From Eledone cirrhosa (Eukaryota), in the NCBI GenBank assembly GCA_964016885.1, contig OZ024743.1, positions 356,562,001-356,626,000 on the forward strand: 64,000 nt of DNA. Reading direction: 5' to 3'. A program made the position numbers and the translations under genes. Positions 10,178-63,256 of the stretch are shown here, piece by piece (the stretch's first letter is position 1; each line of letters begins with the position of its first letter). Below the pieces are notes generated by a model. That model searched no databases and had not been told where the DNA came from. It saw only the letters and a program-made list of their open reading frames with translations.

Positions 10178-12416
10178 TCATCATCATCATCATCAACGTT
10201 TAACGTCCGTGTTCCACGCTTGCATGGGTTTGGACGGGGGTAGTCCCACTTGAGGCAAGAGTGATTGTCTTGCTCGCATAGGACTGTCTGGCAGGTTTTC
10301 TACAGTTGGATGCCCTTCCTAACACCAACCACATTTACAGTGTGGGTCTGGGAGGTTTTTACCGTGTTGCCTACACGGCCACATTACAGCGTGGACTGTG
10401 TGTTTTTTTGTCGTGACACCTACACGATCTCATTTGTTTCGGCCCGGATGGCGCGGCACCAACATAACTTTACATAGGACGGGGTGGTGTGGATGGGGTG
10501 GGGGTGGTGGTGGTGGGACGGGGTGTATTTTGTTAGAGATGCCTACTGGCAAGGCGGGTCTTCTCTGTTACTGAGTACCGCCAAAGGTCTCGGTCCAGTG
10601 ACATTGTCTTGGAGAGGTGTAAGTGTGTGAGGTCGGAGTTTATCAGCTCGTCCCAGGTTTTTCTAGGTCTGCCTATTCCGTGGCTACCGTCTATCTTTAT
10701 TGCCCTGCACTTTGTTATACAGCTATCGACTTTCATGCGCATCACGTGTCCATACCAACGTAGCCTTCTCTCGAGTAAACAACATCTGATCCCTCTTATC
10801 TCTAATTTTTTCCTTAGTTCGTTTATGCTTTGCCGTTCACGTATATTACTGTTACACATCCAGCGGAGCATGCAAGCTTCGTTCCTCTCTAGTCTGCGTA
10901 TATCCTCTGCACACAATGCCCAGGTCTCACTGCCATGCAACATTGCTGTTCGTATGCAGGCATCGTACAACCTGCCTTTCATTTTTAGGGAGAACCCTTT
11001 AGCAGCTAATAGTGGTATAAGCTCTCTGAACTTTTTCCAACCAGTTCTGACTCTAGCTACAGTACTTTCAGAGCACCCTCCCCCACTGCTGATTTTATCG
11101 CCCAGGTAACGGAAGCTGTCCACTATTTCTATAGAACCCTCTGCGCAATTGAAAGAGCTAGTATTGTGTGGGCACTTGCTGCTACTTATTGCACCAGAAC
11201 ACCGGCCACATGTAAAATCTATGTTCTTAGTTAGCTTACCTGTGATCCCACTACATCTTTTATGCACCCATACTTTGCATTTAGGACACAAAATGGAGTT
11301 TCTACCTACGCCTTTCCTACACACCGAGCACGACCATTTCCCAGAAGGGACCGCCGCCTTGTTTTCTTTCCTACAAACTAGAACTTTGGTCTTAGCCAGG
11401 TTAATTTTAAGTCCTTTTGACTCTAGGCCGTGCTTCCATGTTTGGAATTTCTTCTCTAGCTCGGCCATTGATTCCGCTATGAGTGTCAGGTCGTCTGCGT
11501 ATAGGAGTTCCCATGGGCAGCCGGTCTTGAACTCCTCTGTTATAGCCTGAAGGGCAATAATAAATAGTAGGGGGCTGAGAACAGAGCCCTGATGGACGCC
11601 AACTTTTACGCTAAACTCTTCACTATATTCGTTGTTAATTCTAACCTTGCTGACTGTTTCTTTATACATGGCTTGTATAGCCCTCACAAGCCATTCGTCA
11701 ACGCCTAGTTTTCTAAGAGCCCACCAGATAATGGAGCGGGGGACTCTGTCGAAGGCTTTCTCCAAGTCGACAAAAGCTAAGTAGAGGGGTTTACCTTTAG
11801 CTAGGTACTTCTCCTGTAGTTGTCGTACTATGAAAAGAGCGTCTGTGGTACTTTTGCCTGACACAAACCCGAACTGCATTTCATCTAGGTCAATTCTCTC
11901 TCTGATTAGTTGCGCTATTACTTTTTCTGTGACCTTCATGACCTGGTCGATTAATTTAATGCCTCTATAGTTACTCCTATCTAGGGCGTCTCCTTTACCC
12001 TTATAACAGTTAACGATGATGCTGCTATGCCAGTCCTTCGGAACAACCCCATTCTGTACGACTTGGTTAACTATGCGGGTGACCATGGTGTGTCCCACCG
12101 TGCCAGATGCCTTCAGCATCTCAGCAACTATTTCCGAAGGCCCAGCCGCCTTACCTGTCTTCATATCCTTGATTGCCTTACTTATTATACTCCCCTCGAC
12201 TAACACTGCTGGTCCCTCTATTGGGTCGACATGGGGGAGACTGTCTTTCTCCCATTTATTCTCCTCATTTAGTAGCCTTTCATAGTGACACTTCCAAGCT
12301 GCCTTCTTATCAGTGTCGGTGATGGCAAGTATGCCATCATCGTTAAGTACACACTTCTCCCCGACAATATCACGATTTTCCTTGACGCATTGCCTAGCAA
12401 TCCTGAACACCTCACG
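10178..12416 (-). mobile_element. Young RTE LINE family-1, 5'-truncated, open RT-PHD-C-terminal frame
   Basis: Stop-free frame 10533-12416 with [40 protein letters not shown] and [10 protein letters not shown]. ~340-bp 3' UTR and (GAT)n tail. No endonuclease domain; the YIYI N-terminus is flanking microsatellite. Confidence 0.96.
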
Positions 12417-14512: not shown

Positions 14513-14707
14513 TAACTGGCCATATCCGGACAGAATTCTCTAAACTCTTTCTTTTCAAACTGGTTGCAACCAGCCACTCATACTGATGTTAAGGTACTTT
14601 TCTCAAAATAAATAATATCAAAATCTCTTAGATTCGATATTATGTGAGATAAAGTCTTTACCACGAAAATACAAAAATATATAGAGAGTAATGTAAATGC
14701 TAAAGGG
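14513..14707. mobile_element. piggyBac-derived MITE, one TIR degenerate
   Basis: Ends TAAATGCTAAAGGG. Body is the reverse complement of the MITEs at 31318 and 46979. Confidence 0.75.
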
Positions 14708-15748: not shown

Positions 15749-18270
15749 CCCTTTAGCATTCAAACTGACAAAAACCCTTTTGCATTCAAACTGACAAAAA
15801 CCGACATTTAATACCACATGGAGATCTCCTTCTAAAAATAAACATTGACATCATCAAAATCTCGTCAATTCGAGGTTACTGCAAGATAAAGCCCTTACGC
15901 GCGAAAATTAACTCTTAGTATAGTTAAAGAACTTGCGATAACACGTGTTTTTAACGTTGAAAGTGTAACATGGCTTCCGAAAGTAGCGACAACGAATTTG
16001 AAGGTTTTACATCCGACGACATTCGAGATCAAAAAGAAACAGAAGATAATATTAGTGATTTATCTTCAAACGAATCAGATATATTTATTTCTGATATATC
16101 TGATGATGATGATAGTTACTTTAAAAGTGAAAGAGAAGATTTGACTGACACCATTGAAAAAACAGCAACGTGGTTGAAAGAAACAACACCAATACATGTT
16201 TCGGATTTTACTGAAAACACACATTACCACCCGATGCTAAAGCACTGGATTATTGTTTTTTATTTTTACCACAAACTTTCTTCGAAGTTGTGGCAGAAGA
16301 GACAAATTGCTATGCCCAACAACAAATTTCTAATCGATCTGTTATGGCATCCGACAGATTCTGCTGAAATGAAAGCGTTTTTTACCATAAATATTATGTT
16401 TGGTATTAAACAATTTCCAAGACTGTGGAATTATTGGAGTACTGATATAAGGTTTGGTGACCCTTATATATCTAGTATTATGACAAAACGAGATTCATCA
16501 AATTAAACCAGTATTTACACCTGGTTGATACTTCAAATGCCCCTGGTAGAAATGAATCAAATTACGACCCACTGTACAAAGTACGACCATTAATTGAAAT
16601 GTTATCGGAAAAATTTAAAAGTGTGTATATACCTGGAAAAAATCTTAGTGTTGATGAAGCTATGATTGGGTATAAGGGTAGGGTTCATTTCAGACAGTAT
16701 ATGCCAGCTAAACCCACCAAATGGGACATCAAAGTGTGGGAACTGTGTGAATCGGACACAAGCTACTGTGTAAACTTTGATGTTTACACAGGAAAAAACA
16801 TAACGGAGAGAGAAAACACGGGTTGGGTTATGATGTTGTGTAGTCGCTGACCCAACCCTTCCACTCTCAACACAGACATATATATTTTGACCGTTTTTTT
16901 CTTCGGTGCTTTTAGCAGAGGATTTTGCCCTTGTAAATACGTACACCTGCGGCACAATAATGAGCAATCGGAAAGGGCTACCCCAAGAAATAAAAGTTGT
17001 GAAACTGAAAAACAGAGGGGACATTCTCCAAATACAAAAAGGGAACATGTTAGCCACAGTGTTCAAAGACAAAAGGCAAATTTTGTTCCTGAGTTCTAAC
17101 CAACAACCAGGTGTTGGGGCTGAGGGTAAACCTTTAGTTAACCTCTCCTACAATAAATATACAGGTTGGGTTGACAAATCTAACCAGTATTGTGCATATT
17201 ACCCAGTTGGACGCCCTGGAAAGAAGTGGTGGAGGTACATCTTGTGTTTTTTAGTGAATTTAACCATTGTGAATTCTTTTATTGTATTTACTAAAAGCCA
17301 CAAGGATTCGCCACCACCAAAGGACTACTGTCATATGAAGTTTCGCGTGGACATTGCATCCCAGCTACGTGGAGGATATACTTCTCGCAAACACAAAGCT
17401 GGGAAAAAAATCAAAATTAACAGTGGTCCACAAAGAAAATATTGATTTTCACAAAGTGGAGAGAATTGATGGTAGGAGGAAGGTTTGCCGATTGTGCTCT
17501 TTGCAAAAGAGAAAAACTGTTAAAGGTTACGCAATCCAAACCCTATTTATGTGTTCCTTTTGCAAAGTGCCATTATGTAAAGGGTGTTTTGGGCAGTATC
17601 ACGATAGAAATATTGTCTGACAATATTGAAAACAATATTTTAAAAATATATTAGCACACATATACAAAAACACCTGCATTCACCTGTGTCACACCTGTAT
17701 CACACCTGTTAATGAACTTATATATTGGCAACATTCTGTTACGTAAATTTACACCGTACATTGTGTAAGAGTACATTGCCAATATTATTTTGACTGGTGA
17801 AAAGGTTTTATACATTTTTTTCAATGAAAATATTTGCCTGGAATGTAGAGAAAGACTAAAACCTTGTACTGATTACACCTGCATTTTTAATTAATTCACC
17901 TGTTCGGAAAACTGCTAGAATTGATGGAAATCAGCATCTAGGCCATTATTGGATTTTTTTGCAACAAATCTAACAGGTAAGGCAGATAAAGTTTAAATTT
18001 TGTGTTTATCCATAAAGTTATTACTTTTACACCTGTTAATTAATTTCACCTGCCCATAAAAGTCAAATTTAACCAAAAAAAATCAGGTAAAAATATATAA
18101 TTGTAAATTATAGTTATTTAAACATCTACTGACAAAATTTCAAGTCTGCACATAGAAAATTAAAGTAATTACAAACAAATAAAATTGATAACCTCCTTGA
18201 GTATAATTAAGTGAAAATAATGCGAATAGATGAACATGACATTTGACAATTCAATGTGAATGCTAAAGGG
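15749..18270 (+). mobile_element. Full-length piggyBac DNA transposon (inactive)
   Basis: TTAA on both sides (15745-48, 18271-74). Perfect 14-bp TIR CCCTTTAGCATTCA/TGAATGCTAAAGGG. Confidence 0.95.
15970..17620 (+). pseudogene. piggyBac (PGBD4-like) transposase, frameshifted
   Basis: Acidic N-terminus, SVDEAMIGYKGR, QYMPAKPTKW, YNKYTGWVDKSNQ, KKWWR, and a C-terminal CRLC..CSFC..LC..CF..YH cysteine-rich domain. Split over several frames. Confidence 0.93.
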
Positions 18271-20827: not shown

Positions 20828-20830
<3 letters not shown>

Positions 20831-21030
20831 AAAAGAAACCAAAGAACGCTTACATACTCAAACAGTTTTTATTTGCTTACAATGTTTCAGCCATACCGTT
20901 TGGTAGAAATCCTCAGAGCTTAATAAACACAGTGTTGAATATAAGCTCCACCAAGCTTAGTCACACAATGAAACATTGTAAGCAAATAAAAACTGTTTGA
21001 GTATGTAAGCGTTCTTTGGTTTCTTTTACA
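20828..21030. mobile_element. Penelope-like inverted pseudo-LTR fragment containing a minus-strand hammerhead (20875-20919)
   Basis: Perfect 62-bp inverted arms 20828-20889 and 20969-21030. Minus strand reads GCT-CTGAGGA-...TACCaaacGGTA...-GAAAC-ATT-GTA-AGC-AAATAAA. Confidence 0.65.
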
Positions 21031-22445: not shown

Positions 22446-22555
22446 AGAAGAAGTTTATGAAACGCAAATGCGGGTATAAAGAATTTATTAGGTAACATTT
22501 ATTTGTTACCTAATAAATTCTTTATACCCGCATTTCCATTTCATAAACTTCTTCT
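22446..22555. repeat. ~52-bp inverted repeat with 6-nt loop
   Basis: AGAAGAAGTTTATGAAA...GGTAACA / TGTTACC...TTTCATAAACTTCTTCT with 2 mismatches. Confidence 0.9.
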
Positions 22556-23124: not shown

Positions 23125-25678
23125 GTCGTACATTATAGAGGAGCAGTGGGAATTCCTGAAAGCAAACCTGCTGATGGCGGCAGACGAAGTCTGTGGCTGG
23201 AGCAGGCCTGTAGGCAGGAGGAGAGTAACATGGTGGTGGAACAGTAAGGTGGAGGGGTCAATTAAGGCCAAAAAGCAGGCTTGGAAAGTATGGCGGGATG
23301 GGGGAAGCAGAGAAGATTATCAAGTGGCCAGGAGGGAAGCTAGGAGACAAGTGTACTCCGCAAGAAGGGAAGCAGAGGAAAGAAAGTTCAAGCAGGTTCT
23401 ACAATGCGAGGACCAAAAACGTGAGGTGTTCAGGATTGCCAGGCAATGCGTCAAGGAAAACCGTGATATTGTCGGGGAGAAGTGTGTACTTAACGATGAT
23501 GGCATACTTGCCATCACCGACACTGATAAGAAGGTAGCTTGGAAGTGTCACTATGAAAGGCTACTAAATGAAGAGAATAAATGGGAGAAAGACAGTCTCC
23601 TCCACATCGACCCAATAGAGGGACCAGCAGTGTTAGTCGAGGGTAGTATAATAAGTAAGGCAATCAAAGATATGAAGACGGGTAAGGCGGCTGGGCCTTC
23701 GGAAATAGTTGCCGAGATGCTGAAGGCATCTGGTACGGTGGGACACACCATGGTCACCCGGATAGTCAACCAAGTCGTACAGAATGGGGTTGTTCCGAAG
23801 GACTGGCGTAGCAGCATCATCGTTAACTGTTATAAGGGTAAAGGAGACGCCCTAGATAGGAGTAACTATAGAGGCATTAAATTAATCGACCAGGTCATGA
23901 AGGTCACGGAAAAAGTAATAGTGCAACTAATTAGAGAGAGAATTGATCTAGATGAAATGCAGTTCGGGTTTGTGTCAGGCAAAAGTACCACAGATGCTCT
24001 TTTCATTGTACGACAACTACAGGAGAAGTACCTAGCTAAAACTAAACCCCTATACTTAGCTTTTGTAGACTTGTAGAAAGCCTTCAACAGAGTCCCCCGT
24101 TCCATTATCTGGTGGGCTCTTAGAAAACTAGGTGTTGACGAATGGCTTGTGAGAGCTATACAAGCCATGTATAAAGAAACAGTCAGCAAGGTTAGAATTA
24201 ACAACGAATATAGTGAAGAGTTTAGCGTAAAAGTTGGCGTCCATCAGGGCTCTGTTCTCAGCCCCCTACTATTTATTATTGCCCTTCAGGCTATAACAGA
24301 GGTGTTCAAGACCGGTTGCCCATGGGAACTCCTATACGCAGATGACCTAACACTCATAGCTGAATCAATGGCCGAGGTAGAGAAGAAATTCCAAACATGG
24401 AAGCACGGCCTAGAATCAAAAGGCCTTAAAATTAACCTGGCTAAGACTAAAGTTCTAGTTTGTAAGAAAGAAAATAAGGCGCCGGTCCCTTCCGGGAAGT
24501 GGCCATGCTCAGTGTGTAGGAAAGGCGTAGGTAGAAACTCAATTTTGTGTCCCAAATGCAAAGTATGGGTGCATAAAAGATGTAGTGGGATCACAGGTAA
24601 GCTAACTAAGAACATAGATTTTACATGTGGCCGGTGCTCTGGTGCAATAAGTAGCAGCAAGTGCCCACAGAATACTAGCTCTTTCAACTGCACAGAGGGT
24701 TCTATAGAAATAGTGGACAGCTTCCGTTACATGGGTGACAAAATCAGCAGTCCGGGAGGGTGTTCTGAAAGTACAGTAGCTAGAGTCAGAACTGGATGGA
24801 AAAAGTTCAGAGAGCTTATACCACTATTAGCCGCTAAAGGGTTCTCCCTAAAAATGAAAGGCAGGTTGTACGATGCCTGCATACGAACAGCAATGTTGCA
24901 TGGCAGTGAGACCTGGGCATTGTGTGCAGAGGATATACGCAGACTAGAGAGAAACGAAGCTTGCATGCTCCGCTGGATGTGTAATAGTAATATACGTGAA
25001 CGGCAAAGCATAAACGAACTAAGGAAAAAATTAGAAATAAGAGGGATCAGATGTTGTTTACTCGAGAGAAGGCTACGTTGGTATGGTCACGTGATGCGCA
25101 TGAAGGATGATAGCTGTATAACAAAGTGCAGGGCAATAAAGATAGATGGTAGCCACGGAATAGGCAGACCCAGAAAAACCTGGGACGAGCTGATAAATTC
25201 CGACCTCACACACTTACACCTCACCAAGACAATGTCACTGGACCGAGACCTTTGGCGGTTCTCAGTAATAGAGAAGACCCGCCTTACCTAAATACAAAGT
25301 AAAACCTACTACAGTCAGTAGGCATCTCTAACAAAATACACCCCCCGTCCCACCACCCCCACCCCATCCACACCGCCCCTTTCAATGTAAAGTTATGTTG
25401 GTGCCACAACATCCAGGCCGAAACAAATGAGATCGTGTAGGTGTCACGTCAAAAAAACACAGTTCACGCTGTAATGTGGCCGTGTAGGCAACACGGTAAA
25501 AACCTCCCGGCCCCACACTGTAAATGTGGTTGGTGTTAGGAAGGGCATCCAGCTGTAGAAAACCCGCCAGATAGTCCTATGCGAGCAAGATAATCACTCT
25601 TGCCTCAAGTGGGAAAACCCCCGTCCAAACCCATGCAAGCGTGGAACACGGACATTAAACGATGATGATGATGATGAT
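23125..25678 (+). mobile_element. Young RTE LINE family-1, 5'-truncated, one in-frame TAG at 24074
   Basis: ORFs 23174-24076 and 24149-25291 are one frame and nearly identical to 10533-12416. 3' UTR and (GAT)6 tail. Confidence 0.96.
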
Positions 25679-29444: not shown

Positions 29445-30944
29445 AAGACCGGCTGCCCATGGGAACTCCTATACGCAGATGACCTAACGCTCATAGCTGA
29501 ATCAATGGCCGAGCTAGAGAAGAAATTCCAAACATGGAAGCACGGCCTAGAATCAAAAGGCCTTAAAATTAACATGGCTAAGACTAAAGTTCTAGTTTGT
29601 AGGAAAGAAAATAAGGCGCCGGTCCCTTCCGGGAAATGGCCATGCTCAGTGTGTAGGAAAGGCGTAGGTAGAAATTCCATTTTATGTCCCAAATGCAAAG
29701 TATGGGTGCATCAAAGATGTAGTGGGATCACAGGTAAGCTAACTAAGAACACAGATTTTACATGTGGCCGGTGCTCTGGTGCAATAAGTAGCAGCAAGTG
29801 CCCACAAAATACTAGCTCTTTCAACTGCGCAGAGGGTTCTATAGAAATAGTGGACAGCTTCCGTTACCTGGGTGACAAAATCAACAGTGAGGGAGGGTGC
29901 TCCAAAAGTACAGTAGCTAGAGTCAGAACTGGATGGAAAAAGTTCAGAGAGCTTATACCACTATTAGCCGCTAAAGGGTTCTCCCTAAAAGTGAAAGGCA
30001 GGTTGTATGATGCCTGCATACGAACAGCAATGTTGCATGGCAGTGAGACCTGGGCATTGTGTGCAGAGGATATATGCAGACTAGAGAGAGGAACGAAGCT
30101 TGCATGCTCCGCTGGATGTGTAATAGTAATATACGCGAACGGCAAAGCATAAACGAACTAAGGAAAAAAAATTAGAAATAAGAGGGATCAGATGTTGTTT
30201 ACTCGAGAGAAGGCTACGTTGGTATGGTCACGTGATGCGCATGAAAGACGACAGCTGTATAACAAAGTGCAGAGCAATAAAGATAGATGGTAGCCACTGA
30301 GTAGGCAGACCCAGAAAAACCTGGGACGAGCTGATAAATTCCGACCTCACACACTTACACCTCTCCAAGACAATGTCACTGGACCGAGACCTTTGGCGGT
30401 ACTCAGTAACAGAGAAGACCCGCGTTACCTAAATACAAAGTAAAACCTACTACAGTCAGTAGGCATCTCTAACAAAATACACCCCCGTCCCACCACCCCC
30501 ACCCCATCCACACCGCCCCTTTCAATGTAAAGTTATGTTGGTGCCACAAAATCCAGGCCGAAACAAATGAGATCGTGTAGGTGTCACGAAAAAAAAAACA
30601 CACAGTCCACGCTGTAATGTGACCGTGTAGGCAACACGGTAAAAACGTCCCAGTCCCACACTGTAAGTGTGGTTGGTGTTAGGAAGGGCATCCAGCTGTA
30701 GAAAACCTGCCAGACAGTCCATGCTGTAATGTGGCCGTGTAGGCAACACGGTAAAAACCTCCCAGCCCCACACTGTAAATGTGGTTGGTGTTAGGAAGGG
30801 CATCCAACTGTAGAAAACCCGCCAGACAGTCCTATGCGAGCAAGATAACCACTCTTGCCTCAAGTGGGAAAACTCCCGTCCAAACCCATGCAAGCATGGA
30901 ACACGGACGTTAAACGATGATGATGATGATGATGATGATGATGA
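29445..30944 (+). mobile_element. RTE family-1, 5'-truncated, frameshifted; ~110-bp tandem duplication in 3' UTR
   Basis: [13 protein letters not shown] through the PHD-like region and FRYLG. 30611-30722 is repeated at 30723-30833; (GAT)n tail. Confidence 0.94.
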
Positions 30945-33033: not shown

Positions 33034-34634
33034 CAGTGCCCCGCAAAAGTTTACAACACATTAGGAAAAATGCAGTTTTAGGTAGTTTTAATAAAGTTAG
33101 GGTAATGAGAATTTAACTACTGATAGAACATATGAGGCATTTAATGATACAATCATATTTTTTTTTAAATAAGGAAATAACTCATGAAGAAAAAAAAAAT
33201 CAATATTTTTATAACGCAAAAGTTTACAACACATTTTATATTTATCGCTTTTTTTCAAGAAAATTCTTAAATTTTCAGATTTAAAATTCAGTAGAATGTT
33301 CTAGATTAGGTTTAAGGTAACTTCTAAGGACTATTAAAAACATTACGTCATTATTTGTCTAACAACCATCCTGTAAACATTGACAACCGTCCTGTAAACA
33401 TTGACAATATGGGGAAAAATAAACTGATTGATCAAGACCTCTGTAAACGCATTGTAGACCTTCATACAAATAGTGTTGGTTATAGAAAGATATCTTGTCA
33501 GTTAAATGTGCTATTGAGTTCAGTTGGTACTATAATTCGTCACTGGAAATCTCATCATTCCATCTGTCCTCTAATTAGTTCTGGTCGTCCTAGAAAGATA
33601 ACGGAACGTGCAGCTCGGTTATTGGTGAGAAAGGTTGGCAACGAACCCCGGTGTACTCTTAAAAATCTTCAGGATGACCTAGAAGAAAGTGGAGTAAAAG
33701 TGAGCACAGATACAATTAGTCGTTCACTACATCGATATGATATCTTCTCGAGGTCTCCAAGGAAAACACCACTTCTTACGAGGAAACACGTTCTTCGTTG
33801 ATTAAACTTTGCAAATGAGCATCTCATCAAACCTGCGTCATTTTGGGAAGTGTACTTTAGTCGGACGAAACAAAAATTGAACTTTTTGGTCAAAATGCTG
33901 TGGCAAAAGTCTGTAGAAAGAAAGGTACTGAATATTCGCCGAAGAATACTATTCCAACTGTAAAATTTGGAGGTGGATCAATCATGGTCTGAGGTTGCTT
34001 TAGTGCCACAGGTGTAGGAAATATTTAAATAATAGAAGGAAGAATGGGTGGCACTTATTATAGAGGTATTTTGCAAAGGAATTTACATCAAAGTGCACAT
34101 TCTCTCAGCTTAAAGCCAGGTTGGCTTTTTCAACAAGATAACGATCCAAAGCATACTGCAAAGCTAACACAATCTTGGTTAAGTACGAATGGAATAAATG
34201 TTCTAAAATGGCCATGTCAGTCTCCAGATCTTAACCCGATCGAAAATTTGTGGAGAGAATTCAAAAAAGGAAACCCCAAAATATCCCTGAACTAAAGAAA
34301 ATTTGTTGTGAAGAATGGATAAATATTAGCCAAGAAACATGCAAGAAGTTTGTAGGAGGCTACTCCAAACGCCTACAGGCTGTAATTAGCAACAAAGGTT
34401 ACGCTACGAAATATTAAGAGATGATTTAATAAATGTGTTGTAAACTTTTGCGTTATAAAAATATTGATTTTTCTTCATGAGTTATTTCCTTGTTATTTTT
34501 TTTTAAATATGATTGTATCATTAAATGCCTCATTATATGTTCTATCGGTAGTTAAATTTTCATTACCCTAACTTTATTAAAAATACCTAAAACCGCATTT
34601 TTCCTAATGTGTTGTAAACTTTTGCGGGGCACTG
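33034..34634 (+). mobile_element. Full-length Tc1 element, IR/DR type (1601 bp)
   Basis: TA flanks. ~200-bp TIRs start CAGTGCCCCGCAAAAG, each with two copies of CGCAAAAGTTTACAACACATT. Confidence 0.96.
33409..34417 (+). pseudogene. Tc1 DD34E transposase with stops and frameshifts
   Basis: Paired-like [24 protein letters not shown]-34 aa-E ([11 protein letters not shown]), terminal GYATKY*. Confidence 0.95.
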
Positions 34635-35298: not shown

Positions 35299-35676
35299 TT
35301 TCTGAATTTGTTTAGCAAGATTCTTTATCTGAAATCGTGTGTTGAAACCGATATTGTTATACTTTGGGAGGGTCATGTTGCCAATAAGAAACACACGCAC
35401 CAGTTGCTTTCACTTCAATTTATTATATATTTATAAATTTATAAATTTACAAATCTACAAATTTATAAATTTTTGGTTGGTTGGTTGGTTCCACAACCAG
35501 ATAGTTGTTTATATATAGTCATAGTCCTTTCGTCACACACTCTGTGACCTCTTCAGTGACTGGGGATTCCTTTCTTTGTTTCTGTGCCTTTCCTTTCTTC
35601 TGTCCTACGCCATTTTATTTCTGTGTGTGTAAATATATATATATTTATACATATATATATATATATATACACACAT

Positions 35677-36321
35677 ACATACATTGTGAAGGGGTAGAAT
35701 CCCAACCATTTCAACATGCTTTCCCCAACTTGATTGTTCGCTTGAAAGTACTTGTAGAAATTTAAAAAAGATAGTGGATTGATCTGACTTCAAATGTTTC
35801 ATTAAAACTTTGGTGACTTTGGGATTTGGACTACTCTACATAGTCACTATACCATCACACAATACCATTTTAATAATTGTTTCTACTTTTGGCACAAGGC
35901 CAGCAATTACCCAGTGTATTACTAGTACTTTATTTTATCGACCCCGTAAGGATGAAAGGAAAAGTGAACCTCGGCGGGATTTGAATTCAGACCGTAATGG
36001 GACGTAACTGAGTTCAAATCCCGCCGAGGTTCACTTTTCCTTTCATCCTTACGGGATCGATAAAATAAAGCACCAGTAATGTACTGGGTAATTGCTGGCC
36101 TTGTGCCAAAAGTAGAAACAATTATTAAAATGGTATTGTGTGATGGTATAGTGACTATGTAGAGTAGTCCAAATCCCAAAGTCACCAAAGTTTTAATGAA
36201 ACATTTGAAGTCAGATCAATCCACTATCTTTTTTAAATTTCTACAAGTACTTTCAAGCGAACAATCAAGTTGGGGAAAGCATGTTGAAATGGTTGGGATT
36301 CTACCCCTTCACAATGTATGT
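35677..36321. repeat. 645-bp palindrome (314-bp arms, 17-nt spacer) with head-to-head SINEs at the centre
   Basis: 35677-35990 is the reverse complement of 36008-36321. About 6 mismatches, all within the inner ~80 bp. Confidence 0.97.
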
Positions 36322-37334
36322 GGTAAGAGGCATCAGACAATCTGATTTTAGATATATACAAGGCTGATCTGGAGCTAAAAAATAACAGCCACTACAACAA
36401 TACATATTCAGTGAGATGTGGTCTCTCATCCTCTCTAGGGGGTCAGTAGCTCCAATTTAGTAGTAACATGATCAGTAAGCATCCATTCAACCTATGCCAG
36501 CAGAGAAAATGAGCATAAAATGGGATTAGGATGTTTGTTTCTCTTTAAAATAAATCAAGTCAAAATGTCTGGACTGGCCATTGGGATTCTACTTCTTTAC
36601 TATATCCACCCTGCATCCTATCATGCATTGAGTACATCCTAGAGTGTGGTCATTATGGTTCTACAAATTGTAGACACTCCATATATATATAAACACACAC
36701 ACAAGCATACATACATATGAAGTAACCAAGCTGAAACTTTGAACTCACTTTTCAACTTTAAAAAATATATTTTTACACTCTAGCTACCAGTATTAAGTGC
36801 ACAATCAGTTAATGTTTGAATGGTTTAAATACTATGGTATTTTAAACACACATTCTAATGCATACACAGATACATATATATATATGTATATAAATATATA
36901 TATACACACACAAACACACACACATATGTGTGTGTGATCTCAGAGTTGGTACAACCATTAGTGACCATTAGTGAACAAATGCTCCAAATGCAATGTTTAA
37001 TAATCACCAAGAGTATATTACTCTCACCTTTGCCCACCAATTGTCTCCAAATAATTTCCATTATGATTTCTCCAAGAGGCAGTTTAGTTACAATCTTGCT
37101 CTTTGACCATTTGCTTAGCCAATATTTCTTCAACCTCCCTCCCACACACTACCACCACCAATACAACCAACAAAACCAACCACACCACCTCACTGCAAAT
37201 ACCTAATACCTGACTGGTTGACTGCCTGTCTGTTTGTGTGTGTGCAGCTTACACAAACTCATGCTCCATCTTCCCTTCTCATCATATTTGCTCCCACCCT
37301 CCTAACAAACTTGCTTGAAGTATTGGCACTGTGT

Positions 37335-39049: not shown

Positions 39050-40652
39050 ATCGTTAGTTAGAGACTTGTAGTATTTTGCGACAATTTTTTATGTTGTAAG
39101 TTCAAATCCAACCGAGGTCAACTTTGCCTTTCATTCTTCAGGGGTCGATAAAATATAGTACCAGTTAAGGGCTGAGTCAATGTAATCTACTAACCCCTTC
39201 CATTGAGATTGCTGGCCTTGTGCGTAAATTAGAAACCATTATTATTATAATGATTATTCTTGTAGCTGTTGTTTTATCCCTTTATATTCTAAGTTCAAAT
39301 CCAGTTGAGGTCAACTTTGCTTCTCCCCTTTTCAGCAGGGTGGGGTTCAATAAAATAAAGTAAGAGTCAAGTACTGGAGTCAGTTTATTTGATAATCCTC
39401 TCCCATTCCCTAACTCCATGGCCTTATGATTATTTTAGAAACACCCTCACCTCATTTTATGCTTATTTTCTCTGCTGGCATAGGTTGGATGGATGCTTAC
39501 CGACCATATTAATACTAAATTGGAGCTACTGTCCTCCTAGAGAGGTTGAGAGACCACATCTCAGTGAATATGTATTGTTGTAATTGCTGTTATTTTTTAG
39601 CTCTAGATCAGTCTTGTGTATATCTAAAACCACATTGTCTGATGCATCTTACCATTATTAAAATGGTATTGTGTGATGGTATAGTGACTATGTAGAGTAG
39701 TCCAAATCTCATCATAGTCAACAAAGTTATAATGAAACATTTGAAGACAGATCAATCCACTATCTTTTTTTTAATTTGTGTTCTCATGCTCATGTTAGAT
39801 ATTATTATTATTATTATTATTAAGAGTTCAAATCCCGCCAAGGTTGACTTTGCCTTTCATCCTTACGGGGTCGATAAAATAAAGTACCAGTAATGCACTG
39901 GGTAATTTGCTGGCCTTGTGCCTAAAGTAGAAACAATTATTATTATTAAGACGGTGGATCGGCAGTATCAGTAGAGCATCAGACACCATGCTTTTGCAGC
40001 ATAAAGTTATGGCCCTTTAGTTTCTGAGTTCAAATTTCGCTGAGGTTAGCTTTTCCTTTTATCCTTACGGGGGTCAATAAAATAAAATACCAGTAATGCA
40101 CGGAGGTCAATTTAATCAATTTCCTTCTCCCCACAAAATTGTTGGCCTTGTGCCTAAATCAGAAATCTATATTATTATTATTATTATTATTACCAGGGCA
40201 GTGGATTAGCAGTATCAGTAGAGCATCAGACACCAAGCTTTGCAGCATAGAGTTATGGCCCTTTACGTTCTGAGTTCAAATCCTGCCGAGATTAACTTTA
40301 CCTTTCATCCTTACAGGGTCAATAAAATAAAGTACCAGTAATGCACTGGATAATTGCTGGCCTTGTGCCAAAAGCAGAAACAATTATTTAATCAACTTTC
40401 CACACCTCTAAAATCGTTCATTATTATTATTGTGGATTGGTAGAACTGTTAGGGCATGAGACAAATGCTTTATGGTGTTTACTCCAGCAATTTACATTCT
40501 AAGTTCAAATCCTGCAGCATTCAGCTTTGCCTGTCATCCTATTTAGATCAATAAAATAAAGTACCAGTCAAGTGCTGTGATTGATTTGATTCTCCTTTCC
40601 CTTAAATTTCTTGGACTTGTGTCTCAATTGGAAACCATTATTACTATTATTA
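39050..40652 (+). mobile_element. Cluster of about 6 co-oriented (ATT)n-tailed tRNA-type SINEs
   Basis: GAGTTCAAATCC.GCCGAGGT..ACTTTGCCTTTCATCCTT.CGGGGTC.ATAAAATAAAGTACCAGT..GCTGGCCTTGTGCC at ~39100, 39291, 39824, 40025, 40271 and 40501. Central domain resembles Meta/Sauria-SINE motifs (from memory, unverified). Confidence 0.85.
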
Positions 40653-46658: not shown

Positions 46659-46978
46659 TGTATATAAATACCTTACTTCAAGTTAATATTCCACATTTTT
46701 ACTTCACTTCCATTTTACACATTCACAAAAATTTGTTTTGATTTAATCATCAAAATAAATTTAATTTTCAAAGTCCTGTACCATGTACAAGACATCATTG
46801 AAAAGTACGAAACATCACTGTGACTGCACCACATCAGCAATTATTCTTTAACTTTAAAATTATTTCTTATATTTGAATTAACAAACCACATTTTTTGTTA
46901 AATCATTACATAACTTAAAATGCAGAAGATTAACAATGTCCCAACATATATACATATATATATTAAAAAATCCTTTAA

Positions 46979-47283
46979 CCCTTTAGTATTTACATTATAT
47001 ATACTGTTATACTTTGCCTTTCACCCTTACGGGGTCGATAAAAATAAAGTACCAGTAATACACTGAAATAATTGCTGGCCTTGTGCCAAAAGTAGAAACA
47101 ATTATATATACTGTTATATTTTCATGGTAAAAGCTTTATCTTACATAATATCGAGTCTGAGATTTTGATATTTATTTTGAGAACAATACCTTAACATAAG
47201 TATGAGTGGCCAGTTACAGGTAGTTTGAACTGAAAGAGGTGAGAGAATTCTGGCCAGATACAGCCAGTTTAAATACTAAAGGG
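46979..47283. mobile_element. piggyBac MITE interrupted by a 5'-truncated SINE (47012-47100)
   Basis: TTAA on both sides and TIR CCCTTTAGTATTTA. The SINE is flanked by the 18-bp duplication ATTATATATACTGTTATA. Confidence 0.92.
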
Positions 47284-48424
47284 TTAAACAAAATTATAAG
47301 TAATTCAATTAAATGATTTCTTTATTGTTATTCAATTAATATACACTTTTTTTAGGTTATGCAACTAATTTTTTTAAAAATACAATAGAATAAAAAGGTA
47401 CAGCACCAATTTTCTGGCAACTGTTGGTCTGGCACCATATCTAATCTGGACATAATTATGAGTGGACACTTGAATCTGCTGCCCACCCCTTCATTCCCAC
47501 TAGAGTAGTTTTGATTGCATTTATCTGTAGTTATGGTTTTCCAACAGAGTACAAGTGTCAAAATGTTTGTGTCTATATTATTATAGCTAACTCTTAACAT
47601 CCTATACCATATGAAACCACATTAGCAAAAAATTATTGGAAAATACAAAACAGCACTATGACTGCATCACATTACGTTACTCTAATAGTGTACATGTTCA
47701 TAGTGATCTTTGCAGTAGTAAAGAGACAATAAATATTTGAATTAACAAACACAATTTTAGAGATGATTTTTTTGTTTTGTTTTTGGGGGCTAAATCATTA
47801 CAGGATATTTAAGAGTTAAAATGTAGAGAGTGTACTTAATATATCTCAAATTATTAAACAAAGGTCTATTGCAGAGGTTTCATGGTAAAAAAAAATTATT
47901 AATAAAATAGCGAAAGTCTCCTAGGAATTTATCCAGAATTATTATCATTTGATATCTATTAGTTGGGCAAAATGGATAATTTAACATAAGTCTGGAACTA
48001 AAGGTGCTAGAAACTTTATGCCATACATATATGGTATTACTGTTTGTTAGATTTTGAATTCTATAAAACAGTCCTCAATACTTGACTGCTTTGCTTTCTT
48101 CTTACTATCCTTTAATTCTCTTATAAGAAAATTCAGTGCTCCCATTGCACACTTTTAGTTTTCATGCTTCATACAAATTTTGGGACATTTCCGAAAGTCA
48201 CTCGGATACACAAGCTGTTTCACTATGGCTTCTACTATGTTGGTAAAAATCGTTATCTGAAATAAACACTTGTAGTTCAGTTAACACTTTAAGGTCTTCA
48301 AAAATACATACATATGTGTATTGTGTGTCATGAGCATTGTTTTAACATCTGCTTTCCCTGCTAGTAATGGTTGGACAGGTCTACATAGACCAAGTCAGTA
48401 CTGAAGCAGGACTATTGATCTCCC

Positions 48425-48840: not shown

Positions 48841-49002
48841 TCGGACGCCATGCTTTCCAGCATAGTTACGTCCCTTTACGATCTGAGTTCAAATCCCGCC
48901 GAGGTTGACTTTGCCTTTCATCCTTACGGGGTCGATAAAATAAAGTACCAGTAATACTCGGAGATAATTGCTGGCCTTGTGCCAAAAGTAGAAACAATTA
49001 TT
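48841..49002 (+). mobile_element. (ATT)n-family SINE inserted in an old RTE tail stub
   Basis: Near-consensus body with ATTATTT on both sides. Confidence 0.82.
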
Positions 49003-51247: not shown

Positions 51248-52282
51248 TAGCAGCAAGTGCCCATAGAATACTAGCTCATTCCATTGCACAGATGGTTCTA
51301 TAGAAATAGTGGACAGCTTCCGTTACCTGGGTGACAAAATCATCAGTGGCGGAGGGTGCTCTGAAAGTACAGTAGCTAGAGTCAGAACTGGAAAAAGTTC
51401 AGAGAGCTTATACCACTATTAGCCGCTAAAGGGTTCTCTCTAAAAATGAAAGGCAGGCTGTATGATGCCTGCATACGAACAGCAATGTTACATGGCAGTG
51501 AGGCTTGGGCATTGTGTGCAGAGGATATAAGCAGACTGGAGAGGAACGAAGCTTGCATACTCCGCTGGATGTGTAATAGTAATATACGTGAAGGGCAAAG
51601 CATAAGCGAACTAGGGAAAAATTAGAAATAAGAGGGATCAGATGTTGTTTACTCGAGAGAAGACTACGTTGGTACGGTCACGTGATGCACATGAAAGACG
51701 ACAGCTGTATAAAAAAGTGCAGGGCAATAAAAATAGACGGTAGCCACGGAGTAGGCAGACCCAGAAAAACCTGGGACGACTTGATAAATTCCGACCTCAC
51801 ACACTTACACCTCTCCAAGACAATGTCACTGGACCGAGATCTTTGGCGCTACACAGTAATGCAGAAGACCCGCCTTACCTAAGTACAAAGTGAAACCTAC
51901 TACAGTCAGTAGGCACCTCTAACAAAAATACACCCTCGTCCTACTAACCCCACCCCATCCACACCACCCCTTTCAATGTAAAGTTATGTTATGTTGGTAC
52001 CACAACATCCAGTCCGAAACAAATAAGGTCGTGCAGGTGTCACGACAAAAAAACACAAAGTCCACGCTGTAATGTGGCCGTGTAGGTAACACGGTAAAAA
52101 CCTCCCAGTTCCACACTGTAAACGTGGTTGGTGTTAGGAAGGGCATCCAGCCGTAGAAAACCTGCCAGACAGTCCTATGCGAGCAAGACAACCACTCTTG
52201 CCTCAAGTGGGAAAACTCCCGTCCAAACCCATGCAAGCGTGGAAGATGGACGTTAAATGATGATGATGATGATGATGATGAT
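51248..52282 (+). mobile_element. RTE family-1 3' kilobase, frameshifted
   Basis: [20 protein letters not shown], 3' UTR and (GAT)n tail. Confidence 0.92.
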
Positions 52283-52548: not shown

Positions 52549-52748
52549 TTAAATATATATACATATAAATATATATACATATCTTTATATATGCATCTAA
52601 CTATATATACAAATATTTATACACACATATATAAATATATATATATATATTTAAAGATATATACATATAAATATATTTACATATAAATAAATGTACATAT
52701 AAATATATAAACAGATATTTAAATATACATATATATATATATTATATA

Positions 52749-52880
52749 AATTGAGAGGAACAGAATAAACAAATATAAAACAATTCATTAAAAAATTAAA
52801 ATGAACAGGTAGATATTAAAAAATCATTTTTTAATTTTTTTTAAGTTGTTTAATATTTGTTTGTTCTGCTCATCTCAATT
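52749..52880. repeat. Diverged ~56-bp inverted repeat
   Basis: AATTGAGAGGAACAGAATAAACAAATAT... versus ...ATATTTGTTTGTTCTGCTCATCTCAATT. Confidence 0.75.
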
Positions 52881-53053
52881 TTTATAGTTCTACTATCTCA
52901 AATTAGTACCATCGAACAACAATTATATTATAGACACCCTATATATCTCTATGCGTACTTAGTACCCAGAGAGATATTTACCTTATTTTATATATATATA
53001 TATATATATATATGTCGTTTCTGAATTTGTTTAGCATGACCCTCCCAAAGTGT

Positions 53054-53457: not shown

Positions 53458-53775
53458 GGTGGCTGCCAACTCGTTTTCGAGTACGGCCACTACTTTATAT
53501 CCATGTAGGAGAACCCCTACCGATGCGCTAAACAAGTGTGACTTTTAGTCCAGCCAGCGACTTGAAAACTCTGGTACAAACACTACACCTGTGACAATTA
53601 TTGACACAGTGTTGGGGCCTTGGTACCATGTGACGACAAGTGTAGAGAGATCTCCAGATATAAAGCAATGCCTGTGCCGTGAAGCTTTTATAGTGAGCAA
53701 AGGCACTGCACAAAGCCAGTCCCACTCTCTTAACCCGAGTTGATATTTACCAAAAAGGAAGAAGTAAGTCAACAT
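53458..53775 (-). mobile_element. Non-autonomous RTE derivative, copy 2 (5'-truncated)
   Basis: Encodes [17 protein letters not shown]; same 3' end as the other copies. Confidence 0.82.
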
Positions 53776-57965
<4,190 letters not shown>

Positions 57966-58065
57966 TAACGAAGGAAATGTGGTAAGGAACCATGTGGACC
58001 ATAACGCACCAAAGTACTCAATACTTGAGGTAGTAGAGTGGGTCTTACTGGGGTCTTACTGGTTC
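57966..58065. repeat. Short dispersed element, second copy at 60750-60868
   Basis: TAACGAAGGAAATGTGGTAAGGAACCA...GGGTCTTACTGGTTC with the same ends in both copies. Confidence 0.8.
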
Positions 58066-58066
58066 C

Positions 58067-58100
<34 letters not shown>

Positions 58101-58220
58101 GAATTTACACATATATATATATATGAATTTACATATATACACACAAACATACATATATATTTATAGATATATATACATATATATATTTACATACAAATAT
58201 TTATGCATATATATATATAC

Positions 58221-58272
<52 letters not shown>

Positions 58273-58575
58273 GGACACACGTTATAAAATAATTAAAGAT
58301 TTTCCCGAGAGGAATGAAAGAGCACCACAGTTAAATAAGGTACTCAATACATATTTGATGATTTCAAATGTATGCAACAATGTTCGTCCTGTAGAAGTCC
58401 TTTCACTATGAAATTATATATATGTATATATATATATAATATATATACGCACACGTTCACACACATATGTGTGTGAGCGTGTCTATGTATGTGTCCGTAA
58501 TTTTTTGTTGGACTAAGACAACGTTAAGTATAATAGTAGTGTATATGAAAGTATATATATATATTATATTTTATG

Positions 58576-58636
<61 letters not shown>

Positions 58637-58897
58637 GTATTATATTTTATGTATACATATACATATATATATATATTATATTTTATGTATACATATATAT
58701 ATTTATATATATTATATTTTATGTATATATATATTATATATATATTATATTTTATGTATACATATATATATTATATTTTATGTATACATATACATATATA
58801 TATCTTATATTTTATGTATACATATATATATATTATATTTTACGTATACATATACATATATATATATTTTATGTATATATATATATTATATTTTATG

Positions 58898-58936
<39 letters not shown>

Positions 58937-59371
58937 GTATGTATACATATATATATATATGTATACATAAAATATAATATATATATATATATATTATATT
59001 TTATGTATACATATATATATTATATATTATATTTCATGTATAAATATATATATATATATATATTATATTTTATGTATACATATATATAGTATATATATAG
59101 TATATATATTTTATGTATATCTATATAGTATATATATTTTATGTATATATATATATATATTATATTTTATGTATATATATATTATATTTTATGTATAAAT
59201 ATACATATATATTATATTTTATGTATACATATACATATATGTATTATATTTTATGTATACATATATATATATATTTTACGTATATATGTATATTTTTAAT
59301 GTATATATATATTTTATGTATATATATATATATATATATTTTATGTATATATATATATTTTATGTATATAT

Positions 59372-59580
59372 ATCATCATCATCATCATTTTACGTCCGCT
59401 CTTCCCTGCTGGCAAGGGTTAGACGGGTCCTAGTCCTATTCAACACAGCATCTCTCCACTCGTCACGGTCCTTCGTCATCTCCACCGTGAGCTTCAACGA
59501 TCTGAGGTCTGTTCTCACCACCTCCGCCCATGTTTTTCGTGGTCTACCTCTACCACGTCTTACTTCAACTGGCATTTCCA

Positions 59581-60903: not shown

Positions 60904-61044
60904 AACGTGTGTATATATATAAATGTATATACACGTGTTTGTATGTATGCATGTGTATATATATATACATATATATATATATACACACACAAACGTGTAT
61001 ATATATATACATACATACATACAAACGTGAATATATATATATAT

Positions 61045-61370
61045 GGTGGCTGCCAACTCGTTTTCGAGTACGGCCACTACTTTATATCCATATAGGAGAA
61101 CCCCTACCGATGCGCCGAACGGGTGTGACTTTTTAGTCCAGCCAGCGACTTGAAAACTCTGGAACAAACACTACACTTGTGACAATTATTGACACATAGT
61201 GCTGGGCCCATGGTACCATGTGACGACAAGTGCAGAGAGATCTCCAGATATAAAGCAATGCCTGTGCCGTGAAGCTTTTATAGTGAGCAAAGGCACTGCA
61301 CAAAGCCAGTCCCACTCTCTTAACCAAGATGATATTTACCAAAAAGAAGAACAAGTCAACATCATTGGAT
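61045..61370 (-). mobile_element. Non-autonomous RTE derivative, copy 3
   Basis: Homology to the other copies. Confidence 0.85.
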
Positions 61371-61430
61371 ATATATATATATACATACATACATACATAC
61401 AAACGTGAATATATATATATATATATACAT

Positions 61431-61836
61431 GGTGGCTGCCAACTCGTTTTCGAGTATGGCCACTACTTTACATCCATGTAGGAGAACTACCAATGCGCTG
61501 AACGAGTGTGACCTCCCAGTCCAGCCAGCGACTCGAAAACTCTGGTACAAACACTACACCCGTGACAATCATTGACACATAGTGCTGGGCCCATGGCACC
61601 ATGCGACGACAAGTGCAGAGAGATCTCCAGATATAAAGCAATGCCTGTGCTGTGAAGCTTTTATAGTGAGCAAAGGCACTGCACAAAGCCAGTCCCACTC
61701 TCTTAACCAAGATGATATTTACCAAAAAGAAGAACAATTCAACATCATTGGATACCATCAGGGTTGAAGGTGTTATATCAGAGTTTTCCTTCTCCTAGAA
61801 TTCTGCCTTGACAAAGGCTAAGGGGTCATCTCTCCC
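61431..61836 (-). mobile_element. Non-autonomous RTE derivative, copy 4 (406 bp, probably full length)
   Basis: Minus strand begins GGGAGAGATGACCCCTTAGCCTTTGTCAAGGCAGAATTCTAGGAGAAGGAAAACTC. Confidence 0.85.
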
Positions 61837-61892
61837 ATATATACATATATATATATATATATACATATACATACATATATACATATATATAT

Positions 61893-61923
<31 letters not shown>

Positions 61924-62290
61924 CATATACATACATATATATATATATATACATACATATATATATATATATATATACATACATACATATATATATATAC
62001 ATACATACATACATATATATATATACATACATACATATATATATATATATACATACATACATACATATATATATATACATACATACATACATATACATAC
62101 ATACATACATATATATATATACATACATACACACATATATATATAAATATATATACATACATATATATATATATATACATATATACATACATATATATAT
62201 ATATATATACATATATACATACATACATATATATATATATACATATATACATACATACATATATATATATATACATATATACATACATAC

Positions 62291-62337
<47 letters not shown>

Positions 62338-62350
62338 CATATATATATAC

Positions 62351-62427
<77 letters not shown>

Positions 62428-62444
62428 CATATATACATACATAT

Positions 62445-62475
<31 letters not shown>

Positions 62476-62533
62476 CATACATACATATATATATATATAC
62501 ATATATACATACATATATATATATATACATACA

Positions 62534-62587
<54 letters not shown>

Positions 62588-62596
62588 CATACATAT

Positions 62597-62627
<31 letters not shown>

Positions 62628-62678
62628 CATATATACATATATATACATACATATACATACATATATATATACATACAT

Positions 62679-62711
<33 letters not shown>

Positions 62712-62748
62712 CATACATATATATATACATACATATATATATATATAT

Positions 62749-62779
<31 letters not shown>

Positions 62780-62870
62780 CATATACATACACATATATAC
62801 ATACATACATATACATATATATACATACATATATATACATATATACATATATATACATATATATACATAT

Positions 62871-63256
62871 GGTGGCTGCCAACTCGTTTTCGAGTACGGC
62901 CACTACTTTATATCCATGTAGGAGAACCCCTACCGATGCGCTGAACGAGTGTGACTTTTCAGTCCAGCCAGCGACTTGAAAACTCTGCTACAAACACTAC
63001 ACTTGTGACAATGATTGACACACAGTGCTGGGCCCATGGTACCATGTGACGACAAGTGCAGAGAGATCTCCAGATATAAAGCAATGCCTGTGCCGTGAAG
63101 CTTTTATAGTGAGCAAAGGCACTGCACAAAGCCAGTCCCACTCTCTTAACCAAGATGATATTTACCAAAAAGAAGAACAAGTCAACATCATTGGATACCA
63201 TCAGGGTTGCAGGTGTTATATCAGAGTTTTCCTTCTCCTAGAATTCTGCCTTGACA
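62871..63256 (-). mobile_element. Non-autonomous RTE derivative, copy 5
   Basis: Intact C2H2 coding [25 protein letters not shown] at 63007-62930. Confidence 0.85.

Follow-up and report, generated by a model that had tools for sequence, protein, structure and literature searches.

The presence of a palindrome of 645 bp at positions 35677-36321 of the window, i.e., the whole 64-kb stretch of DNA that was analysed, is confirmed. Its two arms (35677-35990 and 36008-36321) measure 314 bp each and enclose a loop of 17 nt (35991-36007), figures that had already been given in an initial annotation of this DNA and were reproduced upon recomputation. The structure is the top short-loop inverted repeat of the window, with a score of 288 vs. 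58 for the runner-up. Six mismatches separate the arms, at positions 5, 49, 64, 67, 74 and 75 counted from the centre, and there is none at positions 76-314; an earlier estimate of about six inner mismatches and roughly 235 identical outer bp is hereby refined to six in the inner 75 bp and none in the outer 239 bp. The SINE fragments, formerly assigned about 80 bp per arm, proved longer, with the SINE half making up approximately 113 bp of the arm, 38 bp of which lie within the identical part. The features of the locus, together with a local paralog and a control SINE, are as follows.

35633..35684, no strand: TA/CA alternating microsatellite tract (TRF row 35633-35669), into whose edge the left arm reaches by 8 bases
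35677..35877, plus strand: flank A, native left flank and outer left arm (201 bp), joined to flank B in the paralog
35878..36009, minus strand: 5'-truncated SINE copy including the loop, tail at the AATAAT target (BLAST 35869-36009 vs. 49005-48864, 92% over 142; alignment)
35991..36007, minus strand: loop of 17 nt that belongs to the 5' sequence of the SINE itself (alignment with the copy at 48864; loose ends behind 36009 are SINE head)
36008..36009, plus strand: 2-nt microhomology at the fold, where CT pairs with AG at 35989-35990 (loose ends at 36008/36009 show family sequence to either side)
36008..36120, plus strand: putative inverted copy of the left-half SINE, with two rare alleles in common (alignment and family reads)
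36121..36321, minus strand: A', exact inverted copy of flank A (0 mismatches; a single contig of 201 nt at a depth of 23.5, free of other letters)
36322..36536, plus strand: flank B, from the empty-site junction on, with 1 shared base and without target duplication (contig 36292-36676, depth 10.8)
39439..39770, minus strand: older inverted local copy of A and B that lacks the insertion and serves as a record of the empty site, flanked by the end of a SINE and an (ATT)n run (separate contig, depth 7.7)
47012..47123, plus strand: ordinary member of this short SINE subfamily, serving as a control (target duplication of 14-18 bp)

With regard to its other contents, the window features a cluster of at least six plus-strand SINE copies at 39088-40634, several of them nested in one another's (ATT)n tails, as well as two inverted retroelement copies (10180-12416 and 23420-25678) that are 93-96% alike and contain a frame in which a PHD finger follows a reverse transcriptase; additional pieces of this retroelement are located at 29445-30724 and 51248-52256. 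Transposase remnants occur at 15961-17445 and 33328-33801, with DDE_Tnp_1_7 in two frames and a helix-turn-helix of the Sleeping Beauty/Tc3 type. A small element with 19-bp inverted ends at 46974-47288, related to copies at 14514, 18273 and 31354, hosts a SINE insertion with a clear target duplication. A TA-rich array of 5.6 kb extends from 53774 to 59373, and at 60998-63256 units of 320-390 bp are repeated with TA tracts in between. When Pfam was applied to 19 of the 109 open frames, chosen by eye outside microsatellites, seven yielded transposon-type families and twelve none, and no host gene was identified among these 19. Rfam returned microsatellite-driven matches only, all below gathering scores.

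Read support for the palindrome

Perfect palindromes are a classic artefact. Reads from four of the 13 listed runs (X1, X4, X5 and X11) were compared with positions 35905-36676, outside of which the outer left arm and the left junction lie. In X1, which is probably the sample behind the assembly itself, the arm flank was represented by a single 201-nt contig with a depth of 23.5, without any other letters and ending exactly at 36321, whereas the contig bearing B started at 36292 and had a depth of 10.8; it carried 30 letters on the arm side vs. a bridging rule of 31. The depth ratio of arm to B amounts to 2.2, or 2.1 without the share of the paralog, corresponding to about two arm copies. Arms that are 8% apart would be expected to be assembled separately, while a single difference could be smoothed away.

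In X11, which stems from another individual and another study, the depth bins at 36217-36476 are compatible with two read pairs whose mates lie at 36236-36385 and 36326-36470. The bins fit a clipped reading equally well, and the spanning reading alone yields reads of 150 and 145 nt that end at AATT and CATG sites, the enzyme pair being itself deduced, uncut sites lying within that very fragment and the two pairs possibly representing one molecule. At the ten listed B sites, X11 reads contained no paralog letters. In this second individual two read pairs thus probably cross the outer junction, and the palindrome is probably present. X5 covered the SINE part alone (9 of 30 bins), and the short pieces from X4, a run of another organism, were spread over 24 of 30 bins and gave no readable junction state. 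The read joints considered are the 15 listed out of 504, and a joint of the empty allele may be among the remainder.

An assembly or library artefact, either a fold-back read or polishing that evened out the outer arms, is extremely improbable on these data. It would be in keeping with the facts that no single record crosses the whole stretch, that the contig over the A'/B junction stays one letter under the bridging rule and that X1-X3 may all be the assembly's own sample; the arm depth of 2.2 times that of B, the absence of other letters, the exact end at 36321 and the X11 bins, which fit two pairs with a 150-nt mate over the junction, speak against it. Moreover, a fold-back read would account neither for six family-type transitions nor for a restart at the empty site. 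The concern voiced in the initial annotation that the second arm might be spurious is accordingly much reduced. The palindrome is real, inherited and informative on mechanism.

SINE halves and insertion site

The left SINE match extends to 36009 and includes the loop, which in the alignment corresponds to the 5' part of the 48864 copy. Behind 36009, 38,433 family reads run on into further SINE head, and 20,348 family reads enter the right half at 36008 with a different preceding base; these two observations together define the 2-nt overlap at the fold. Two alleles are common to both halves, one of them present in none and the other in one of the seven other window copies aligned, counts that leave out one of ten alignment rows. 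Among family reads their share is at most 2.6% (of 73,665) and 5.9-7.9% (5.9% of 77,464), respectively. As the halves have two rare alleles in common, they likely represent one copy folded back at a 2-nt microhomology and not two SINEs; a small subfamily carrying both rare alleles could conceivably be another source of the sharing. Two independent SINEs in head-to-head orientation were rejected because of the shared rare alleles and because the spacer is SINE head. Neither the second, "different" plus-strand SINE of the initial annotation nor its reading of the spacer as a linker from a donor RNA could be upheld, since the halves look like one copy and the loop continues the 5' sequence of the left SINE. 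The SINE central block, compared in connection with the CORE/Meta domain question, was found at 17 metagenome loci, all with other heads and tails. A metagenome scan for head-to-head junctions of the palindrome SINE gave no matches, a blank that is uninformative because the 17 loci of this control scan all bear other heads and tails.

The local paralog provides a record of the empty site. It matches 35764-35880 (92.5% over 120) and 36321-36536 (89.8% over 216), its contig differs from flank B at 22 of 216 positions, and it is unbroken across the A/B junction. Since it joins A straight to B, the 444 bp from 35878 to 36321 are counted as extra at the palindrome, without loss of target, just as had been proposed; 1 base is shared at the junction. 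The SINE tail runs into AATAAT at 35872-35877, a site that is seen empty in the paralog, and both sides of the loop carry one SINE tail, each on the same flank end. The claimed insertion of the tail at AATAAT and the copying of about 200 bp of flank by fold-back are supported, A' being an exact inverted copy of the 201-bp flank A.

The insertion at the palindrome lacks a target duplication, no duplication is present outside the arms, and B resumes at the empty site. Among three tested copies of the short SINE subfamily, two (39824 and 47012) have target duplications of 14-18 bp; the third (48864) is devoid of a clear one, so that zero duplication at the palindrome is not unique. Nevertheless, zero duplication and the resumption of B at the empty site favour fold-back during insertion over a later event, because a later event would have to trim the SINE remainder and the duplication to the base. 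In addition, the strand leading from A to the SINE head is what reverse transcription would produce, and the far partner end of this strand would be the nick.

Some peculiarities of the paralog and its surroundings may be mentioned. Within 39439-39823, the paralog lies between the SINE end and the (ATT)n run together with approximately 27 bp of untraced filler; the arrangement resembles an insertion into the tail of a SINE that was templated locally, and a search for the source of the filler returned only 9-base chance matches. The A part of the paralog (39654-39770) is less diverged than the B part, with 4 of 114 vs. 22 of 215 substitutions (p = 0.03, or 0.15 including indels), possibly due to conversion with the arms. 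Furthermore, the outer end of A (35683-35702) shows an inverted 15/17 match with 36580-36598, some 45 bp past the end of the paralog in B, and the two sites might represent the termini of a small, old element that extended over A and B.

Arm divergence, TA tracts and mode of formation

The distribution of mismatches between the arms is far from even. Under uniform placement, the chance that all six fall into the inner 75 positions is 1.6e-4, 3.2e-4 for either end and 7e-4 if the adjacent pair is taken as one. All six are transitions, and in each arm three depart from the family majority; none exhibits an A-to-G editing signature in the SINE sense, one being T-to-C. Positions 74 and 75 correspond to common family alleles (35% and 59% of reads, respectively, retain the window letter) and could be input from other copies. 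Inner divergence (6/75) equals the divergence of locus and paralog (26/329; Fisher p = 1.0), and at a paralog-like rate the probability of finding no mismatch in 239 positions is 2e-9. If the arms began identical, the combination of 239 identical outer positions and six differences in the inner 75 calls for later mutation plus correction, and the simplest reading of the pattern would be an old centre with young outer arms.

Two other ways of producing this pattern were considered. An amended form of the model put forward in the initial annotation assumes that an older fold-back SINE pair located elsewhere was transcribed and retrotransposed, and that the imperfect 75-bp stem allowed the new strand to snap back and to copy the flank in a young event. 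Inner divergence, outer identity and zero target loss would then arise in one step at the locus, and a 75-bp stem would prime far better than 2 nt. We nevertheless consider this course of events quite unlikely, as the donor, too, would need to have arisen by fold-back of a single copy, its loop coming from its own head, which adds a second fold-back event, and as it requires a retrotransposed RNA without a SINE 5' end. Moreover, the agreement between inner and paralog divergence would be a coincidence, and the structure is probably also present in a second individual. Alternatively, a young fold-back with identical arms may have been followed by a dispersed family copy overwriting positions 49-75 of one SINE half, together with a point change at position 5. 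Indeed, no mismatch falls outside the SINE part (P = 0.002 under uniform placement), five of the six are situated within 27 bp, and the right-arm letters at positions 49, 64 and 75 are kept in 15%, 20% and 59% of the reads there, although these fractions are inflated since reads go to the best-fitting arm. The source copy would already have to bear about four rare alleles (1.5-5.9%) and two events would be needed, rendering this explanation very improbable.

A second conspicuous property of the locus concerns the outer end of the arm, which is situated 8 bases inside the TA-containing tract. When the masked 64-kb window was scanned for inverted repeats with loops of up to 300 nt and scores of at least 20, six were found. 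For four of them, including the 645-bp palindrome, an alternating tract with (TA)4 is located no farther than 10 bp from the left outer end. If positions were drawn at random from the unmasked sequence, this would be expected in 1-4% of cases each (P = 9e-6 for four of six and 3e-4 for three of five without the index case), values that refer to one window and to definitions of a TA edge fixed post hoc, after the pattern had been seen. At scores of at least 16, five of ten inverted repeats end near a TA tract. In all four cases the tract lies on the left of the plus strand. The three further palindromes are free of SINEs:

20828..21030, no strand: palindrome with 62-bp perfect arms and a 79-nt loop, left end at a TA tract
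22446..22555, no strand: palindrome with 52-bp arms and a 6-nt loop, left end at a TA tract
52748..52881, no strand: older palindrome with 36-59-bp arms, left end at a TA tract

None of the three is repeated elsewhere in the window, and the inner-only mismatch pattern is seen in none of them. In these smaller palindromes four to five further TA-like bases match past the arm, and either arm may be the copy; in the 645-bp palindrome the orientation of the loop and the paralog identify the right arm as the copy. The initial annotation, whose fold-back copying of the flank is supported, had overlooked that the arm ends at a TA tract, as do the arms of three palindromes without any SINE.

Our preferred explanation, to which we assign roughly even odds (a probability of about 0.5), is that fold-back of the new SINE strand took place in the course of insertion, that copying then went on as far as the edge of the TA tract and was followed by joining at the nick, and that later correction from arm to arm erased the outer differences. 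The SINE tail would have primed reverse transcription at AATAAT; the 3' end would have halted at 36009, with CT pairing with AG over the 17-nt loop; polymerase would then have copied back 314 nt until reaching the TA tract, which can fold on itself; and end joining to B would have made use of 1 base. The event would be old, each arm having gained three transitions since. The outer 239 bp would have been remade, and the inner mismatches presumably spared, either by fold-back at an inner point with renewed copying up to the same TA edge or by repair of a break in the TA tract, which has the same polarity. A fixed stop at the TA edge would let every round of re-copying finish at the arm end. The same figure covers a variant in which the first arm comprised only about 75 bp and was extended later, resulting in an identical sequence. 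Both the timing of the fold-back and the correction step as such are inferred. A strong pre-existing hairpin was not found at the fold: the predicted fold of the strand end has a negligible -0.5 kcal/mol and differs from the required pairing.

The occurrence of three SINE-free palindromes that also end at TA tracts argues against this explanation in so far as fold-back evidently does not need retrotransposition here. The negligible predicted fold, the common family alleles at positions 74 and 75, the lack of an inner-only mismatch pattern in the three smaller palindromes, the third SINE copy without a clear duplication and the differences from the L1 examples described below likewise weigh against it. 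The SINE-free palindromes are in line with another scenario, namely a normal SINE insertion followed later, independently of retrotransposition, by a stalled fork or break in its 5' part, with fold-back, copying as far as the TA tract, rejoining at B and subsequent correction of the outer arms. The two rare alleles shared by the SINE halves could then predate the fold and have arisen in place, and fold-back and inverted-triplication events of similar size stem from replication errors, with breakpoints near microsatellites (PMC13334657). We judge this scenario unlikely on account of its return point, which would have to delete the remainder of the SINE along with a 14-18-bp duplication exactly to the base of the empty site.

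TA repeats form cruciforms and break (PMC13645644), and breakpoints of small inverted triplications are located near microsatellites (PMC13334657). As a tentative generalization, about which we are more doubtful than confident, fold-back copying in this TA-rich genome may have its fixed stops or anchors in the (TA)n tracts. Nearby free ends, the SINE nick among them, would become palindromes that reach to the tract edge, and tract breaks would re-perfect the outer arms. A frequency of about four per 64 kb would imply genome-wide, self-renewing long hairpins that supply dsRNA for editing where they are transcribed. In the literature searched, mostly outside subscription papers, neither TA-anchored palindromes nor SINE fold-back of this kind in cephalopods were found, and such reports may exist; no mention of palindromes was found in PMC13282606.

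As RNA, the region has a predicted fold of -621 kcal/mol, a value that follows from the palindrome and is uninformative on transcription. No RNA run appeared among the listed holders of the sequence, which carries no information on expression; that a transcript might provide dsRNA as a substrate for editing is plausible. As a single locus without shown function the palindrome is a curiosity, and the TA-anchor pattern forms part of its wider interest, for three more mirror repeats ending at TA would indicate a general route to long hairpins in this genome. Should the link hold genome-wide, both the end points of palindrome arms and the maintenance of their identity would be governed by microsatellites, and the link would then offer a countable route to long hairpins in SINE- and TA-rich genomes and a means of testing the origin of editing substrates.

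Comparison with known systems

Several established rearrangements resemble the palindrome superficially and were rejected. In twin priming there is one tail, and the inverted 5' part of the same RNA is not duplicated; it is excluded here by two tails and by the duplication of SINE body and flank. A MITE or foldback DNA transposon does not agree with about two arm copies (depth 23.5 in X1), one partial paralog in the window and the absence of an outside duplication. Small inverted triplications are comparable in size (median of 160 bp for the inverted part and 30 bp for the spacer) and likewise have a breakpoint near a microsatellite, but they consist of three copies and two spacers as compared to two copies and one loop in the palindrome (PMC13334657). 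This class was dismissed as there are two copies only, B follows A' and the arm depth is about twice that of B.

At L1 insertions, inverted duplications that rely on 2-bp homology have been described (10.1101/2024.12.14.628481). As in these L1 foldbacks, where self-annealing on 2-bp homology gives a small hairpin at an end generated by target-primed reverse transcription and is followed by end joining (10.1101/2024.12.14.628481), the fold described here involves 2 nt. In both L1 examples given in that source, however, it is the reciprocal end that is duplicated and a duplication-like overlap is kept (10.1101/2024.12.14.628481), whereas in the palindrome the end of the new copy is duplicated, the element is included and the overlap is absent. 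An inverted duplication of the L1 reciprocal-end type was consequently rejected, the duplicated arm containing the SINE together with the primer-side flank and the overlap being absent.

Fold-back of a nascent strand, in which the inner arms pair and re-copying proceeds outward, has been described (PMC5677150). The correction and extension of quasi-palindromes, by which inner-arm fold-back and outward re-copying make arms identical or longer (PMC5677150, PMC13100816), is akin to the step proposed for the outer 239 bp, although the quasi-palindromes of these sources have arms of tens of bases vs. 314 bp here. Fold-back followed by end joining has been worked out in yeast (PMC11724301), where one end of a break folds on microhomology and is extended while the other end captures it on 0-5 bp of homology, a sequence of events similar to that envisaged for the palindrome; the yeast inversions extend over 2 to about 150 bp as compared to 314 bp and are reported without a retroelement (PMC11724301).

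For insertions made by the R2 protein, snap-back 5' junctions constitute a named class (PMC11371274). There, as suggested here, synthesis starts from the 3' end of the newly made strand before the upstream join, with that strand itself or neighbouring target DNA as the template, and the upstream target becomes joined to antisense element (PMC11371274). The R2 snap-back was observed in cultured cells with engineered templates (PMC11371274), while the present case concerns a natural, inherited SINE with copying through the tail into 201 bp of flank and a stop at a TA tract. Three features that characterize a snap-back are found at the palindrome: the tail is joined to the target at a tail-like site, a 5'-truncated element is followed by its own inverted copy on 2 nt, and B begins at the empty-site junction. 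Fold-back at retrotransposon insertions is otherwise known, in the work cited, mainly from cultured cells and tumours, and the locus constitutes a clean inherited record of such an event with an empty-site copy 3 kb away as a control. In its workings, the palindrome is like R2 snap-back, L1 foldback and yeast fold-back.
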